From Escherichia phage RCS47: a DNA stretch of 64,000 nucleotides. A model generated the notes under the pieces. The model worked only from the letters and a program-made list of their open reading frames with translations, was not told the origin of the DNA and did not search any database. Location of the stretch: the sequence record NC_042128.1; one strand, written 5' to 3'. The position numbers and the translations under genes are program-made. This document shows, piece by piece, positions 1,860-7,249 of the stretch (the first letter of the stretch is position 1; every line of letters begins with the position of its first letter).

Positions 1860-2081
1860 ATGGTTAATGCCAATCCTTGCGCACGCCAAGAATTCATCTG
1901 GCGTTTCTATTCCTGTAAAAAACACCACTATCACTTCGTTATCGCAGCAACAGAAGACGAAGCACGCTCTCAATTGCCTGATGGCCCCTGCATTTTTACT
2001 GCCCGTTTTTCAACTAACTCGCGCAATTCACTTAGTTACTGGAGCCTCCCCTTCTCTGCCGACGTTCAGGGGGGTTTATGA
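1860..2081 (+). CDS. icd: Icd-like cell-division inhibitor
   Basis: 73 aa; conserved EFIWRFYSC..HYHFVIA..TEDEARSQLPD motif shared with the second copy at 52517; ATGA-overlaps downstream ant. Confidence 0.7.
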   Translation: MVNANPCARQEFIWRFYSCKKHHYHFVIAATEDEARSQLPDGPCIFTARFSTNSRNSLSYWSLPFSADVQGGL

Positions 2082-3112
2082 AAACACCTCTCGTCACCCG
2101 TAATGAAATAGCCGAAGCGATCGCCTTGCATACAATCTGTATGCCGACACGGGAGATCCCCGGCGCAATTGCCAACTATTTCATGATAACCAGGCGTTTT
2201 TATACCCGAACAGATAAGGCTGTGATCAACAGGCTACTGATAGCCGAGATCAGGGATTATTTGATTGAACAAGGACGTCTACGTTACGCAACAGTGGCAG
2301 CAGAAATGAGAAAGGAGGCACATAGAATGACCGGTAATAATTTAAATGTTGAAAAACCAGCACCTGTTGCTTCAGCTACGCCAGCACCAGCCCTGAATGT
2401 CATCCCCAACACCGGAGACACAATCGACAGCCAAACATTGTTGAAGATGGTCAATGAGGCACGGAAATTATGTAGCGAAAAACCAGTTCGCAACAATGAT
2501 TTCATTGCCAGAGTTAAGGATGAGCTTGAAGGAGAAACCTACGAAATTTTCGTAGGTCAAAAAAACGGCGCAGAAATAGATATTATAACCATGACCTACA
2601 AACAAGCCCTGCGAGTTGCCGCGCGCGAGTCAAAAGCGGTCCGCCGTTCGCTGATCGACAAACTGGAAGAATTACAGCAGGCAAACTCCCCTACCCCATC
2701 GATCCCCCAGACATTACCAGAAGCCCTACGCCTGGCTGCCGAGTTAGCAGAACAGAAAATGCAGTTGGAACAACAGCTGGTGGCCGCAGCCCCTAAAGTC
2801 GATTTTGCCGACCGGGTATCAGTGGCCAATGGAATCCTGATCGGGAACTTTGCAAAGGTCGTTGGACTTAAGCAAAACGCCCTTTTCTCATGGTTGCGCC
2901 AGAATGGCATTCTCATGGCTTTTGGAGCGCGCAAAAACGTACCGCGCCAACAGTACATCAACGCCGGGTATTTCACGTTGAAAGAAGTGGTGCTGGATGA
3001 TGAAAATGGCTACCAGATACGGCTGACGCCCCAATTAACGGGTAAAGGCCAGCAGTGGTTAACTCGCAAGCTACTTGATGCTGGTTTGTTAAAACCAGTA
3101 GCAATAGGTTAA
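2078..3112 (+). CDS. ant: antirepressor Ant (KilAC C-terminal domain)
   Basis: C-terminal PQTLPEALRLAAELAEQK...GKGQQWLTRKLLDAGLL domain shared with KilA and Ant copy 2. Confidence 0.75.
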   Translation: MKTPLVTRNEIAEAIALHTICMPTREIPGAIANYFMITRRFYTRTDKAVINRLLIAEIRDYLIEQGRLRYATVAAEMRKEAHRMTGNNLNVEKPAPVASATPAPALNVIPNTGDTIDSQTLLKMVNEARKLCSEKPVRNNDFIARVKDELEGETYEIFVGQKNGAEIDIITMTYKQALRVAARESKAVRRSLIDKLEELQQANSPTPSIPQTLPEALRLAAELAEQKMQLEQQLVAAAPKVDFADRVSVANGILIGNFAKVVGLKQNALFSWLRQNGILMAFGARKNVPRQQYINAGYFTLKEVVLDDENGYQIRLTPQLTGKGQQWLTRKLLDAGLLKPVAIG

Positions 3113-3124
3113 CAAAAGAAAAAA

Positions 3125-3149
3125 CCTGCCAGCAAACTGGCAGGTTTCT
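3125..3149 (+). terminator. Rho-independent terminator
   Basis: hairpin CCTGCCAG-CAAA-CTGGCAGG followed by TTTCT. Confidence 0.55.
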
Positions 3150-3189
3150 GAGCAGATCGACCAACCCGATCTGGATCGAGTCAGAAAAA

Positions 3190-3206
3190 TTTGCTCTAAT
3201 AAATTT
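3190..3206 (+). promoter_or_regulatory. C1 operator-like site (16/17) upstream of kilA-repL
   Basis: TTTGCTCTAATAAATTT. Confidence 0.65.
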
Positions 3207-3275
3207 CGTTTTCTAAGTGCAAAGAATCACCATTTCGAGCTGGTGATTGAAGGTTGATGCAAATTTGGAGAAAAA

Positions 3276-4076
3276 ATGCAACAAACATTCAATGCGGATA
3301 TGAATATATCAAACCTTCATCAAAATGTCGATCCTTCAACCACTCTGCCCGTTATTTGTGGTGTTGAAATTACGACCGACCGCGCTGGCCGTTACAACCT
3401 TAATGCTCTACACAGAGCGAGCGGACTCGGTGCCCATAAAGCGCCAGCTCAATGGCTAAGAACGCTGTCAGCTAAACAGCTCATCGAAGAGCTTGAAAAA
3501 GAAACTATGCAGAATTGCATAGTTTCGTTCGAAGGCCGTGGCGGCGGCACTTTTGCCCATGAATTGCTCGCAGTGGAGTACGCTGGTTGGATTTCTCCCG
3601 CGTTTCGGCTGAAGGTAAACCAGACATTTATCGACTATCGAGCCGGAAGATTACAACCTGCTATTCCGCAGAGTCTCCCTGAAGCTCTCCGTTTGGCTGC
3701 CGACCTGGCAGAGCAAAAGCAACGGCTGGAACAAAAAATGCTTATGGATGCACCTAAAGTCGAATTCGCCGAACGCGTTGCTACCGCCAGCGGGGTTCTA
3801 ATCGGCAACTATGCCAAAGTGCTCGGTCTGGGCCAAAACTATCTCTTCACCTGGTTGCGTGATAACGGAATTCTGATCGCAACCGGTGAACGCAGGAACG
3901 TCCCCAAACAAGAATACATATCCCGTGGGTATTTCACCCTTAAAGAAACCGTGATCGATACAAGCAATGGAAGCAGGATTTCTTTCACGACTCGTATAAC
4001 CGGCAAAGGTCAGCAGTGGCTGATGAAGCGATTGCTTGATACTGGTGTGCTGGTACCTGTCGCGGCAACGCGCTAA
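3276..4076 (+). CDS. kilA: KilA (KilA-N domain plus KilAC domain)
   Basis: 266 aa; N-terminal KilA-N/APSES-like region and KilAC C-terminus; followed by repL as in the P1 lytic replicon. Confidence 0.7.
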   Translation: MQQTFNADMNISNLHQNVDPSTTLPVICGVEITTDRAGRYNLNALHRASGLGAHKAPAQWLRTLSAKQLIEELEKETMQNCIVSFEGRGGGTFAHELLAVEYAGWISPAFRLKVNQTFIDYRAGRLQPAIPQSLPEALRLAADLAEQKQRLEQKMLMDAPKVEFAERVATASGVLIGNYAKVLGLGQNYLFTWLRDNGILIATGERRNVPKQEYISRGYFTLKETVIDTSNGSRISFTTRITGKGQQWLMKRLLDTGVLVPVAATR

Positions 4077-4105
4077 CAGACGTAGTAAGAACCACCAGCA
4101 TTGTA

Positions 4106-4951
4106 ATGCTGGCTAAAGTCACTTTCCTGAGCTGTATAACGATGAGCGATTTTACTTTTTCTGGCTATGAATTGGCCTGCTTTGTAACACACTCCGGTCT
4201 ATCCCGTAGCGCCGGGCATATCCTGTCGCAATGTGCAAATCTCGCGGCAACAACCAGTGAATACTTCATTCACAAGCCTCACCGCCTGATCGCGGCAGAA
4301 ACTGGTTATAGCCAATCAACCGTCGTTCGTGCATTCCGTGAAGCTGTAAACAAAGGAATCCTGTCTGTAGAGATTGTTATCGGCGATCACCGTGAACGTC
4401 GCGCTAACCTGTACCGGTTTACACCATCCTTTTTGGCCTTCGCACAACAAGCCAAAAATGCGCTGATTGAAAGCAAATTAAAGATCTCTTCAGCGGCAAC
4501 CAAGGTTAAAGCTGTTCTCGCTAAGACATTGGCTTTATTTAATTTTTTATCCACATCCCCATGTCAAAATGATACCCCCTCCCCCTGTCAGGATGACGTG
4601 GCAATAAAGAATAAGAAGTCACAAGTTAAAAAAACAAAAAGATCAGTTTCCGACGGTGCCGGAACGTCCAGACTCAAAAAATTGACTTCGTGGATCGCTG
4701 AGGCAAAAGCAAAAGCTGACAATCTGCGGTTATCCAAAAAACGCGCTCAAAAACATGAGTTCAAGCAGAAAGTAGAGGCGGCAGCGCGGAAATATGCTTA
4801 CCTGAAGAACAAGCGTTCTCCTGATATTGGCGGGATATCAAACTTCGATAATCTGCCGCATTGCATGACGGTAAACGAAGCTCTTAATGCGGTTTTAGCC
4901 AAAAATAAAGATAACGAACAATGGGGTATACCGGCAGGATTCAGAGGGTGA
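4106..4951 (+). CDS. repL: lytic replication protein RepL
   Basis: 281 aa ORF directly downstream of kilA; size and position match P1 RepL. Confidence 0.6.
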   Translation: MLAKVTFLSCITMSDFTFSGYELACFVTHSGLSRSAGHILSQCANLAATTSEYFIHKPHRLIAAETGYSQSTVVRAFREAVNKGILSVEIVIGDHRERRANLYRFTPSFLAFAQQAKNALIESKLKISSAATKVKAVLAKTLALFNFLSTSPCQNDTPSPCQDDVAIKNKKSQVKKTKRSVSDGAGTSRLKKLTSWIAEAKAKADNLRLSKKRAQKHEFKQKVEAAARKYAYLKNKRSPDIGGISNFDNLPHCMTVNEALNAVLAKNKDNEQWGIPAGFRG

Positions 4952-4965
4952 TAGATTGCTCTAAT

Positions 4966-6330
4966 CTGGAGTCACCTGGCGTTTTCAGCGAAAAACCGCC
5001 GAGAACCCTCGCCCAATGCGGGCGGGGAGGAAAGGCGGAAAAGCCCGAAGGGCTTTAAAAATATTATTACGGTGTTAGCATAAAAACCTGTACCAATGAG
5101 CGGTGACTATGTTAAGAGCAACAAAAGTACGCATCTACCCGACACCAGAACAGGCTGAATTTATCAACGCCCAGTTCGGTGCAGTGCGTTTTGTGTACAA
5201 CAAAGCTCTGCATATCAAGAAACATTCTTACCAGCGGCACCGCGTAAATTTAAACCCGCGTAAAGACCTCAAACCACTGCTTGCAGTGGCGAAGAAATCC
5301 CGCCGGTATGGATGGCTTAAAGAATATGATTCTATTGCGTTGCAGCAGGCGGTAATTAACCTCGACGTGGCTTTTTCTAACTTTTTCAATCCGAAACTGA
5401 AAGCAGGTAAACCTACCTTTAAAAGTAAACACGGCAGACAATCTAGCTATCATTGTGTTGGCATAAAAGTCCTTGATGGTGCGATAAAAATACCGAAAAT
5501 CTTGCCGATTGAAGCGCGTTTACATCGTGAAATTACGGGAATGCTGAAAAGTATCACGTTGAGCCGCAGCGCAACCGGGAAATACTACGCGTCGTTACTC
5601 TGTGACGACGGGATGGAAGCGCCGGCAAAGCCCGCACTGATATCAAATGTGACAGGGCTGGATATGGGGCTGGCGCATTTTGTCATCAAATCGGACGGCA
5701 ATAAAATTGCCAGTCCCCGCCACCTAATCAATGCAAGTCGCAACCTGCGCCGGAAGCAGAAAGCACTGTCCCGTAAGAAAAAAGGGAGCGCAAACAGGCG
5801 CAAAGCCAGAATACAACTTGCAGCCGTTCACGAACGGGTAGCCAGTGCCCGTGCCGATTTCCAGCACAAGTTATCTCGCGCAATTGTTGACGAAAACCAA
5901 GCGGTAATTGTCGAAACATTGAAAACGGCAAATATGATGAAAAATCACCATCTGGCTCGTGCGATAGGCGATGCTGGATGGTCTGGATTCATCACAAAAC
6001 TGGAATACAAAGCAACAGAGAAAGGTGTGCATCTGGTGAAACTGGATCAATGGTTCGCCAGTTCGAAAACCTGCCACTGCTGCGGTCACAAAATGTCGGA
6101 GATGCCATTACATAAGCGCATCTGGCAGTGTCCAGAGTGTGGAGTTGAACATGACCGCGATATCAATGCGGCGCTCAACATCAAACGCAAGGGCATACTG
6201 GAATTACAAGCGGCGGGACTCGTCGTTTCTGCCCATGGAGGCCAGCGTAAATCCGTCACACAGACGGTTGCGGCTTAAGAAGTGGGAAGCCTCGCCCGAC
6301 AGGGCGGGGAGCAGTCACTATGGATTTTCT
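4966..6330 (+). mobile_element. solo TnpB element (IS200/IS605 family, no tnpA), approximate ends
   Basis: tnpB ORF flanked by related subterminal hairpins CCTCGCCC-N4-GGGCGGGGA at 5011-5032 and 6291-6311. Confidence 0.5.
5103..6278 (+). CDS. tnpB: TnpB (OrfB_IS605; RuvC-like nuclease with C-terminal zinc finger)
   Basis: 391 aa; zinc finger CHCCGH...CPECG near C-terminus; typical TnpB N-terminus MLRATKVRIYPT. Confidence 0.85.
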   Translation: MTMLRATKVRIYPTPEQAEFINAQFGAVRFVYNKALHIKKHSYQRHRVNLNPRKDLKPLLAVAKKSRRYGWLKEYDSIALQQAVINLDVAFSNFFNPKLKAGKPTFKSKHGRQSSYHCVGIKVLDGAIKIPKILPIEARLHREITGMLKSITLSRSATGKYYASLLCDDGMEAPAKPALISNVTGLDMGLAHFVIKSDGNKIASPRHLINASRNLRRKQKALSRKKKGSANRRKARIQLAAVHERVASARADFQHKLSRAIVDENQAVIVETLKTANMMKNHHLARAIGDAGWSGFITKLEYKATEKGVHLVKLDQWFASSKTCHCCGHKMSEMPLHKRIWQCPECGVEHDRDINAALNIKRKGILELQAAGLVVSAHGGQRKSVTQTVAA

Positions 6331-6616
6331 TTGGCGCGGTCTGGCCATTAGGGGTCATGTTTGCTGCAACGTTTCTTCTGATGTGGATATTCACCCTTCC
6401 AGGTGATTTCTATAGAAAAAAAGCCAGACATTGATACACCCGCTGCGGTGTGCTTGAGGCTATCTGCTTCAGGCATTCCCCGAAAAGCAGATAGAAGAAA
6501 GCCCCAGTAAACATTATGCGTCCCGCACAACGCTTAACATTAACCGGGGCCATACCTATGCTTAGCGTGCTTAGATTAATCCTCTCCTCTGTCAAGGAGC
6601 AAGGAATTTTTTACTG

Positions 6617-7249
6617 CTATGCCGCCTTTCCAGTTATGGATTCAGCGACCAGAACAACCCCATGCTTACTTCGATCTGGGTGTTCACTCCATATCTCGGA
6701 TTCAGGAATACTTACCCCGTCATAGCAAACACGTTCGCCGTCAAACGGGTAATACTGAGCGGCATCGGTGTCGAGGATAAACACTTTTAGCTCGGAAGAG
6801 CGACGGGCGATATGTTGCCAAAGAGCTTTTCCACCTTCGTATTGCTCATTATCACTGAGCAAAACAACACCAGCTTTTGAGGCTACGGTTTCGTAAACAA
6901 AAGTAGCTAAACCGACATCCCGGACAGTTCCATCAACCACGATACCTTCAATCTGGGCAACATCGCTATCCTCCCAGAACTTCCTTACCAGTACGCCTTC
7001 AAGCTGCGGGCGACGTTGAAGTTCAAGAGTAGCGACAACCTTATGCCGCATATCACCATCGATAACAGAAGGCGCAGCCTCTATTACAGCTGCAAATGGG
7101 GTTTTGGAATCCCATATAACCTGGTAAAGCACACCCTGGATGGTAACTCCGTCCAGGATCGAAAATCGACGAGCGACAGTACCCGGGGAGTACGACATTG
7201 GAATCACAGCCATTTTAGAGTCCCCCTTTAACAGTACAGGCACAAACAT
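6617..7249 (-). CDS. hypothetical late protein (alternative start at 7213)
   Basis: 210-aa ORF at the start of the minus-strand late block. Confidence 0.4.
   Translation of the reverse strand: MFVPVLLKGDSKMAVIPMSYSPGTVARRFSILDGVTIQGVLYQVIWDSKTPFAAVIEAAPSVIDGDMRHKVVATLELQRRPQLEGVLVRKFWEDSDVAQIEGIVVDGTVRDVGLATFVYETVASKAGVVLLSDNEQYEGGKALWQHIARRSSELKVFILDTDAAQYYPFDGERVCYDGVSIPESEIWSEHPDRSKHGVVLVAESITGKAA

Follow-up and report, generated by a model that had tools for sequence, protein, structure and literature searches.

A solo TnpB element downstream of repL in the P1-like Escherichia phage RCS47, probably a chimeric ISEc46 derivative with a predicted omega-RNA

Escherichia phage RCS47 is a P1-like phage-plasmid, and the stretch of its sequence analyzed here (the window; 64,000 nucleotides of record NC_042128.1) contains kilA (3276-4076) and repL (4106-4951, with the stop codon at 4949-4951), each 98-99% identical to P1/P7, while the tail and baseplate genes follow the repL region on the minus strand. 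A TnpB element of 1,330 bp (4989-6318) is placed after repL and before an ORF for a small membrane protein (Table 1). It immediately follows the C1-controlled kilA-repL operon, in the same orientation, and read-through from the operon into the element upon induction is conceivable.

The element contains the only tnpB copy of the window. The 391-aa TnpB described in the initial annotation is confirmed as the ORF 5103-6278 from GTG, and its product carries three Pfam domains (HTH_OrfB_IS605, OrfB_IS605 and Cas12f1-like_TNB; E 1e-20 to 1e-25). The ISDra2 TnpB structures 8bf8, 8exa and 8h1j match residues 4-380 at E=1e-74 (phmmer), the RuvC triad D185/E269/D351 aligns to D191/E278/D361 of ISDra2, and both zinc-ribbon CxxC pairs (322-325 and 341-344) are present, so that the TnpB architecture of HTH/WED-REC, RuvC with its D-E-D triad and zinc ribbon TNB is intact. 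Inactivating mutations of the RuvC-like residues, which had been named as a possible objection to an active nuclease, are absent. Copies with 99.4-99.7% identity are labeled in RefSeq as RNA-guided endonuclease, InsQ/TnpB family.

Table 1. Positions of the features of the TnpB element and its flanks in the window.
Feature	Position	Strand	Remark
TCAG	4985-4988	+	TAM and TnpA left cleavage site, directly 5' of the left end
Left end (LE)	4989-5059	+	Guide-like segment GCCGAGAAC at 4998-5006; two hairpins
LE imperfect hairpin	5007-5014/5020-5027	+	T.G mismatch; 5-nt loop AATGC
LE second hairpin	5040-5046/5050-5056	+	Probable relic tnpA terminator
tnpA-deletion junction and tnpB upstream region	5060-5108	+	442 bp at this place in full ISEc46, with all of tnpA
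Crossover interval, plasmid solo-tnpB lineage (left) to ISEc46 lineage (right)	~5106-5126	+	Putative; at the tnpB start
tnpB	5109-6278	+	ATG start, 389 aa; alternative GTG at 5103, 391 aa; uninterrupted ORF
Predicted omega-RNA scaffold	6208-6318	+	111 nt; covariation in 57 non-redundant relatives
Scaffold stem	6208-6215/6221-6228	+	Consensus fold
Scaffold stem	6232-6236/6282-6286	+	Consensus fold
Scaffold stem, nested	6240-6246/6270-6275	+	Consensus fold
Scaffold stem, nested	6253-6257/6263-6267	+	Consensus fold
Scaffold RE hairpin	6290-6297/6302-6309	+	Followed by the tail AGCAGTCAC, 6310-6318
Candidate pseudoknot	6217-6219 with 6314-6316	+	96% paired, invariant
Right end (RE)	6290-6318	+	Subterminal hairpin 6290-6297/6302-6309 (4-nt loop GACA), terminal ...GCAGTCAC
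Predicted guide	6319-6334	+	16 nt, TATGGATTTTCTTTGG, read from the flanking P1-like backbone

The left boundary of the element is marked by the start of the match to the ISEc46 left end at 4989, 37 nt past the repL stop codon. On the right, conservation among 57 non-redundant relatives (from Photorhabdus, Serratia, Aeromonas, Vibrio, Halomonas and others) halts exactly after GTCAC (6318), with the next base being unrelated, and homology to the insertion-free phage 673R5 restarts at 6319. The exact empty site is present in the P1-like plasmid pTetA_020022 (L094), where the sequence reads GGCGTTTTCAG/TATGGATTTTC (also given as TTTTCAG/TATGGATT; the slash marks the junction), such that TTTTCAG/TATGG of the plasmid corresponds to TTTTCAG-element-TATGG of the window, with no target duplication. 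Since this empty site equals the window minus 4989-6318, the element comprises 1,330 bp and is inserted 3' of TCAG. An insertion accompanied by a 142-bp flanking deletion, as suggested by the comparison with 673R5, is superseded by the exact empty site in pTetA_020022. The comparison with other P1-like genomes that the initial annotation had proposed thus defines the insertion and its TCAG motif, and also provides the sibling empty site, which had been missed there.

The sequence immediately downstream of repL was read differently in the initial annotation, namely as an element that starts at ~4966, only 15 bp after the repL stop codon, that cut a C1-operator-like sequence upon insertion, that replaces rlfA/rlfB and whose scaffold is confined to 6279-6318. 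Two of the underlying observations hold: ATTGCTCTAAT at 4955-4965 is identical to nt 1-11 of the 17-nt P1 operator Orlf/Op55, within which the P1 homology of the window ends (at 4965), and P1 indeed has rlfA and rlfB between repL and pmgF, at the position of the element. However, the same operator break (4965/4966) is found in 673R5 (L001) and pTetA_020022, both of which lack the element and are homologous to the window through 4988, so that the insertion is not the cause of the half-operator. In addition, the left-end match begins only at 4989, and the covarying stems of the scaffold reach back to 6208, inside tnpB. The span of 4952/4966-6330 is therefore replaced by 4989-6318 on the basis of the left-end match, the family conservation and the empty site, the alignment of which refutes the earlier anatomy and leaves it very improbable. 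The half-operator itself is a polymorphism that distinguishes a P1-type backbone, with rlfA/rlfB, from a 673R5-type backbone. The rlfA/rlfB region of P1 and the element share the same slot, between repL and the baseplate and tail genes, but the window has the 673R5-like variant of the backbone without rlfA and rlfB. P1 RlfA (DUF3800) and RlfB were also considered as TnpB homologues, which for RlfB had been raised as an argument against an inserted element, and were rejected, as neither protein is similar to TnpB (best E 1.5 and 0.13, respectively).

Both ends of the element have the organization of the IS200/IS605 family, with subterminal imperfect hairpins, no terminal inverted repeats, and insertion 3' of a fixed tetranucleotide in the absence of a target-site duplication. 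The end hairpins (5007-5027 and 6290-6309) are in direct orientation and contain a T.G mismatch each, and the 8-mers CCTCGCCC and GGGCGGGG occur exactly twice each within the 64 kb, only at the element ends. The initial annotation had correctly seen that matching hairpins flank the gene, but its coordinates (5011-5032 and 6291-6311) need revision, in that the left hairpin has a 5-nt loop and had been placed 4 nt off. Since GC-rich hairpins are located downstream of the stop codons of both repL and tnpB, they could in principle be ordinary terminators of these genes instead of transposon ends. Neither hairpin was called as a terminator, however, and neither is followed by a T-run; the same hairpins are kept at every family copy, at unrelated loci and with compensatory changes, and homology ends 9 nt past the right hairpin, so that the terminator reading is contradicted by the family alignment and is hardly credible.

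What is missing from a complete IS is the Y1 (HUH) transposase: no tnpA was detected by tblastn with ISEc46 TnpA in the whole 64-kb window (best E 1.9), which extends the earlier observation that none is located nearby. The ISEc46 homology of the window jumps from position 1058 to position 1501 of a full ISEc46 copy (L003), in which the tnpA CDS occupies 1061-1486 on the minus strand. Because these 442 bp are absent, the element is a non-autonomous derivative and not a complete IS. The lack of tnpA, together with the position adjoining the C1-controlled lytic replicon, would also be compatible with a TldR-like protein, i.e., a nuclease-dead TnpB domesticated as an RNA-guided repressor for the phage-plasmid. 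Such proteins are recognized by having lost their RuvC catalytic residues as well as the transposon ends, whereas here the RuvC triad and the zinc ribbon are intact, both ends are kept and the element is near-identical to mobile ISEc46 copies, making domestication of this kind extremely unlikely.

In a comparison of 4966-6330 with complete E. coli genomes, 890 places in 807 genomes were found, and the chromosomal copies match 5068/5072-6318 at 98.7% identity, each with a divergent upstream tnpA that RefSeq annotates as "IS200/IS605-like element ISEc46 family transposase", from which the name ISEc46 is taken. In full ISEc46 copies (L003-L005) the left end is located beyond tnpA and is 88% identical to 4989-5059 of the window. 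By contrast, the LE of the window is 98-100% identical to that of solo-tnpB elements on plasmids (L006, L010). Such tnpA-less elements reside in the IncI1 leading region (pNF1358, between psiA and ardA), on another plasmid adjacent to an antirestriction gene, in a different P1-like plasmid between the tail-fibre genes and a holin gene, and in a further phage-plasmid beside hicA. They share 90-99% identity among themselves, whereas their overall identity to the window element is only ~80%, as is that of their tnpB body. The sliding identity resolves this discrepancy: over 4989-5109, the window matches the IncI1 copy at 98-100% and ISEc46 at 64-76% (for 5066-5109, 100% to L006 versus 64% to ISEc46), whereas from 5110 onward the identity is 96-100% to ISEc46 (~99% over 5110-6318) versus 68-92% to the plasmid type (L006). 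Together with the pairwise matrix, this indicates that the element is a tnpA-deleted chimera, with the LE and the tnpB upstream region derived from the plasmid solo-tnpB lineage, and the tnpB body and the RE from ISEc46. The initial annotation was right about a solo TnpB, the catalytic residues of which are intact, but missed that two related IS lineages are combined in it; relative to ISEc46, the element is best described, on these alignments, as a chimeric derivative.

The hybrid is rare, being present in only seven E. coli plasmids, p08_4358-1 among them, in every case at the site seen in the window, and none was seen at a second site. The tnpB part is found in no record of the INPHARED phage collection, where only the flanks match. 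Intermediates were likewise not found: neither a full ISEc46 nor a pure plasmid-type element occupies this site in any P1-like plasmid. As to how the chimera arose, both it and the 142-bp indel could be accounted for by recombination in situ, with a solo element at TCAG/ and an ISEc46 copy located 142 bp further downstream at TTAG/ as the partners; an equally possible source is gene conversion by a chromosomal ISEc46.

The tetranucleotide preceding the element covaries with the guide-like segment of the left end across ~35 insertions. When the LE reads GCCGTAAAC just before the hairpin, the insertion is preceded by TTAG (~30 copies, with TTCG as the one exception), while TCAG precedes all five copies that read GCCGAGAAC, including the window. 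The TnpA of IS608 locates its cleavage site by base pairing with the bases just 5' of the hairpin, and the A-to-G change of the LE along with the T-to-C change of the motif would fit this pairing rule. The TCAG-linked and TTAG-linked copies differ in TnpB residues such as 73 (F/Y) and 76 (M/I), the latter of which aligns with F77 of ISDra2, a TAM contact. The window TnpB has the TTAG-type residues (Y73, I76) despite the TCAG-type LE, but with four versus two sequences, which are moreover non-independent, a link between these residues and the TAM type is a lead rather than a result. This combination of a TCAG-type LE with TTAG-type TnpB residues makes it uncertain that TnpB would cut the excision scar of its own element (TCAG), and the chimera may cut competitors with TTAG sites better than this scar. 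The covariation of LE type and TAM, and the chimera that breaks this linkage, amount to a small natural experiment on how the target specificities of TnpA and TnpB are matched.

The 3' end of the element is predicted to encode an omega-RNA that is larger than initially proposed. When the 3'-terminal 200 nt of the element and 16 nt of flank were aligned for the 57 relatives, RNAalifold gave a consensus with five helices, which, counted from the right end, are located at -111 to -91, -87 to -33 (with two nested stems) and -29 to -10. Standard pairs are formed in 97.3% of the cells, compared with 35-56% when the partners are slid by 1-3 columns; compensatory changes on both sides are found in 19 of the 31 pairs (229 cells), and none of 500 shuffles reached any of the observed measures. 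The candidate pseudoknot, being invariant, shows no covariation. All helices are intact in the window copy, and owing to the frequent G-U pairs the structure fits the sense (+) strand of tnpB only. The conserved structure extends from the RE into tnpB and overlaps the last 71 nt of the gene. To our knowledge, TnpA has no need for structure within the tnpB coding region, and since four of the five helices lie in or span this region, an RNA is the best explanation for them. Furthermore, the identity between the two IS lineages rises from ~70-80% mid-gene to 92-94% over 6204-6303, which fits a constraint that probably goes beyond coding. Folding of the single sequence 6160-6318 gives a z-score of only -1.6, so that the structure is supported by covariation and not by folding energy. 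No omega-RNA family reached the threshold in an Rfam scan of 4800-6600, and the sole match over the scaffold was a sub-threshold HgcC on the RE hairpin (17 bits, E=0.38). The only above-threshold match in the scanned interval is a sok-like RNA, which is located downstream and unrelated. In promoter and terminator scans the counts were within the shuffled background and thus permit no statement on promoters of the omega-RNA or tnpB. The initial proposal of a scaffold and guide at 6279-6330 was correct in placing an omega-RNA at the 3' end, but this interval covers no more than the final hairpin, the tail and 12 guide nucleotides.

Based on the mechanism of TnpB, the guide is expected directly beyond the right end (PMC10097598; 10.1101/2025.02.20.638934), and the alignment of the 57 copies places the boundary there, although it shows this boundary alone and not the 3' end of the transcript. 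The predicted 16-nt guide has a single occurrence in the window, directly after GTCAC rather than after a TAM. At the homologous place of phage 673R5, the sequence is TCTTAG/TATGGATTTTCTTTGG, with 142 extra bp between the TCAG of the window and this TTAG. This 673R5-type junction region was found in P1-like plasmids in 309 of 5,426 complete E. coli genomes, and the TCAG/TATGG form in about 36 further genomes, as estimated by proportion among the matches listed. Exact targets are also present in 65 IMG/VR contigs (TTAG plus the 16-mer in 55 and TCAG plus the 16-mer in 10), compared with three contigs in which the junction is filled. The guide is therefore, as far as it can be read from these genomes, matched to the unoccupied insertion site of most sibling P1-like plasmids. 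The element itself is intact at this site in seven of the 5,426 genomes, while in 108 genomes the same insertion is truncated by an IS3-family element that leaves 38 bp of the RE, and is thus evidently dispensable and often lost.

Taken together, the element is very probably a non-autonomous ISEc46-group IS200/IS605 chimera with an intact tnpB and a predicted omega-RNA aimed at the empty site. By analogy with the mechanism of the family, transcription of tnpB would yield an RNA whose 3' portion (~6208-6334) becomes the omega-RNA, and the TnpB-RNA complex would cut DNA that contains TYAG followed by TATGGATTTTCTTTGG. This target is the insertion site in its empty state. Its cleavage would allow homologous recombination to restore the element or copy it, or, alternatively, would destroy sibling P1-like plasmids that lack it, whereas movement to new sites would require TnpA supplied in trans from a full ISEc46 copy. 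A less eventful history would be that of an inert relic, in which the recent date of the insertion alone explains the intact gene, no functional TnpB-RNA complex is formed and the plasmid is not affected. The few intact copies relative to the 108 truncated ones, the confinement of the hybrid to a single site and the apparent mismatch between the TAM type of the LE and the TnpB residues are consistent with such a relic. On the other hand, the ORF is full-length with all catalytic and zinc-binding residues, its sequence is 98.7% identical to ISEc46 copies that are present in multiple copies on chromosomes, and the scaffold helices have been preserved, so that inertness appears improbable. A role of TnpB and its omega-RNA as a natural gene drive, or as a weapon by which mutually incompatible P1-like elements are excluded, is rather improbable as well. 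The element may nevertheless be regarded, from its sequence, as a concrete natural candidate for such behavior among P1-like phage-plasmids. Its kind and mechanism are already well established, RefSeq labels identical copies as TnpB, and the element opens no new question. Its value is modest and lies in being a worked natural example, in which the ends, the TAM, the guide and the exact empty site can all be read from the sequence. With the predicted target present in hundreds of sibling phage-plasmids, the TnpB gene-drive/exclusion model becomes directly testable in P1-like elements.

This model derives from the experiments of Mears et al., which showed that IS605 TnpB biases inheritance of plasmids that carry the IS and shields conjugative plasmids from siblings without it (10.1101/2025.02.20.638934). 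As in their model, an IS with TnpB occupies a conserved part of a low-copy plasmid, and the guide corresponds to the unoccupied site of the siblings; however, Mears et al. used engineered IS605 constructs and stated that natural guides had not been identified (10.1101/2025.02.20.638934), whereas here a natural guide and its targets are predicted. With ISEc46, the element shares the tnpB and RE (5068-6318), the hairpins and the terminal GCAGTCAC, as well as insertion 3' of TYAG that leaves no target duplication, but it differs in lacking tnpA and in an LE of the TCAG-linked rather than the TTAG-linked type. The tnpA-less architecture, the TCAG TAM and the near-identical LE and tnpB upstream region are instead shared with the solo-tnpB elements of Enterobacteriaceae plasmids (IncI1 pNF1358 and the P1-like pHNBY4G-2), from which the window copy is set apart by its tnpB body and its recombination with ISEc46. 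ISDra2 of Deinococcus radiodurans, finally, has a TnpB with the same domain order and with a D-E-D triad and zinc ribbon that align to those of the window, and an omega-RNA scaffold of 116 nt, with four stems and a pseudoknot, in which stem 1 spans -116 to -86, stem 2 pairs -84 to -81 with -35 to -32, stem 3 is nested, a stem 4 is present and the pseudoknot pairs -105 to -103 with -5 to -3 (PMC10097598). The predicted scaffold of the window (111 nt) resembles it in length and stem layout and in the guide directly after the right end, whereas the TAM differs (TTGAT in ISDra2 versus TYAG), as do the TAM-contact residues, K76, F77, T123 and N124 of ISDra2 being replaced by S75, I76, H115 and C116 in the window TnpB.

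The chimeric tnpA-less TnpB element is found far more often as a truncated remnant than intact. In 108 E. coli genomes and in p2_050613 (L093 2467-2501), the element is reduced to the last 38 bp of its right end (window 6281-6318). This remnant abuts the terminus of an IS3-family element on one side and TATGG, as in the window, on the other, and such truncated copies outnumber intact elements about 15-fold. A different junction is seen in Kluyvera cryocrescens (around position 2317 of its locus), where a copy that is 100% identical over TnpB residues 132-389 has a right end running into GGATCATGTTTGCTGC, equivalent to window position ~6353, so that it lacks 34 bp of the flank normally seen there, among them the guide region. 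Moreover, Providencia phage PSTNGR2lys (37417-37448; hit H20 in the phage collection) contains an exact 32-bp match to the right-end hairpin and tail at window 6290-6321, which suggests that this unrelated phage carries a related IS end. A longer stretch (window 6219-6329, plus strand) also matches the archaeal HgcC RNA below the Rfam threshold (17 bits, E=0.38), with near-identity across the hairpin-plus-tail motif CCUCGCCC...GGGCGGGGAGCAGUCA, and this likeness may reflect either common ancestry of TnpB-associated RNAs or chance.

Comparison of the P1-like backbones revealed a 142-bp indel with exact edges, TCAG| at the left and TTAG| at the right. TCAG and TTAG are the cleavage motifs of the element's IS family, and edges of this kind hint that the indel was produced by TnpA or IS recombination. 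In 673R5-type plasmids the upstream part of a small hydrophobic ORF falls inside the 142-bp segment, while in the window the start of this ORF coincides with the insertion site and its frame is open backwards into the right end of the element, as far as a GTG at 6282. PGAP names the ORF "membrane domain protein, missing N-terminus" in one sibling plasmid. Further downstream, no hok gene follows the sok-like RNA match of the window. By contrast, sibling plasmids have hokD directly downstream of this RNA, and since an opposite-strand 210-aa ORF occupies that place in the window, as it does in phage 673R5, only the hok leader region is left.

Features of the window and of related loci
Feature	Location	Strand	Remarks
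ant1-like ORF	window 2078-3112	+	KilAC/antirepressor-type; consecutive with kilA
kilA	window 3276-4076	+	KilAC/antirepressor-type
Small hydrophobic ORF	window 6282-6434	+	
sok-like RNA	window 6448-6596	+	Rfam RF01794; 61.4 bits (gathering score 59)
210-aa ORF	window 6617-7249	-	phrog_7522
142-bp indel	phage 673R5 (L001) 2489-2630		versus window 4988|6319 and pTetA_020022 (L094) 2503|2504
tnpA-less TnpB element	IncI1 plasmid pNF1358 (L006) 3005-4340		further copies in L007, L010, L011

Other tnpA-less TnpB elements on plasmids share 90-99% pairwise identity, and E. coli records with such copies number roughly a hundred when scaled up by the proportion of sampled rows. On IncI1 plasmids the element lies in the leading region between psiA and ardA, another copy adjoins an antirestriction gene, a further one adjoins hicA, and in another P1-like plasmid a copy is located between the tail-fibre genes and the holin gene. 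As for the genes upstream of the element, the ant1-like ORF and kilA have a near-identical C-terminal motif, which is likewise common to both in P1 and is ordinary for the family.
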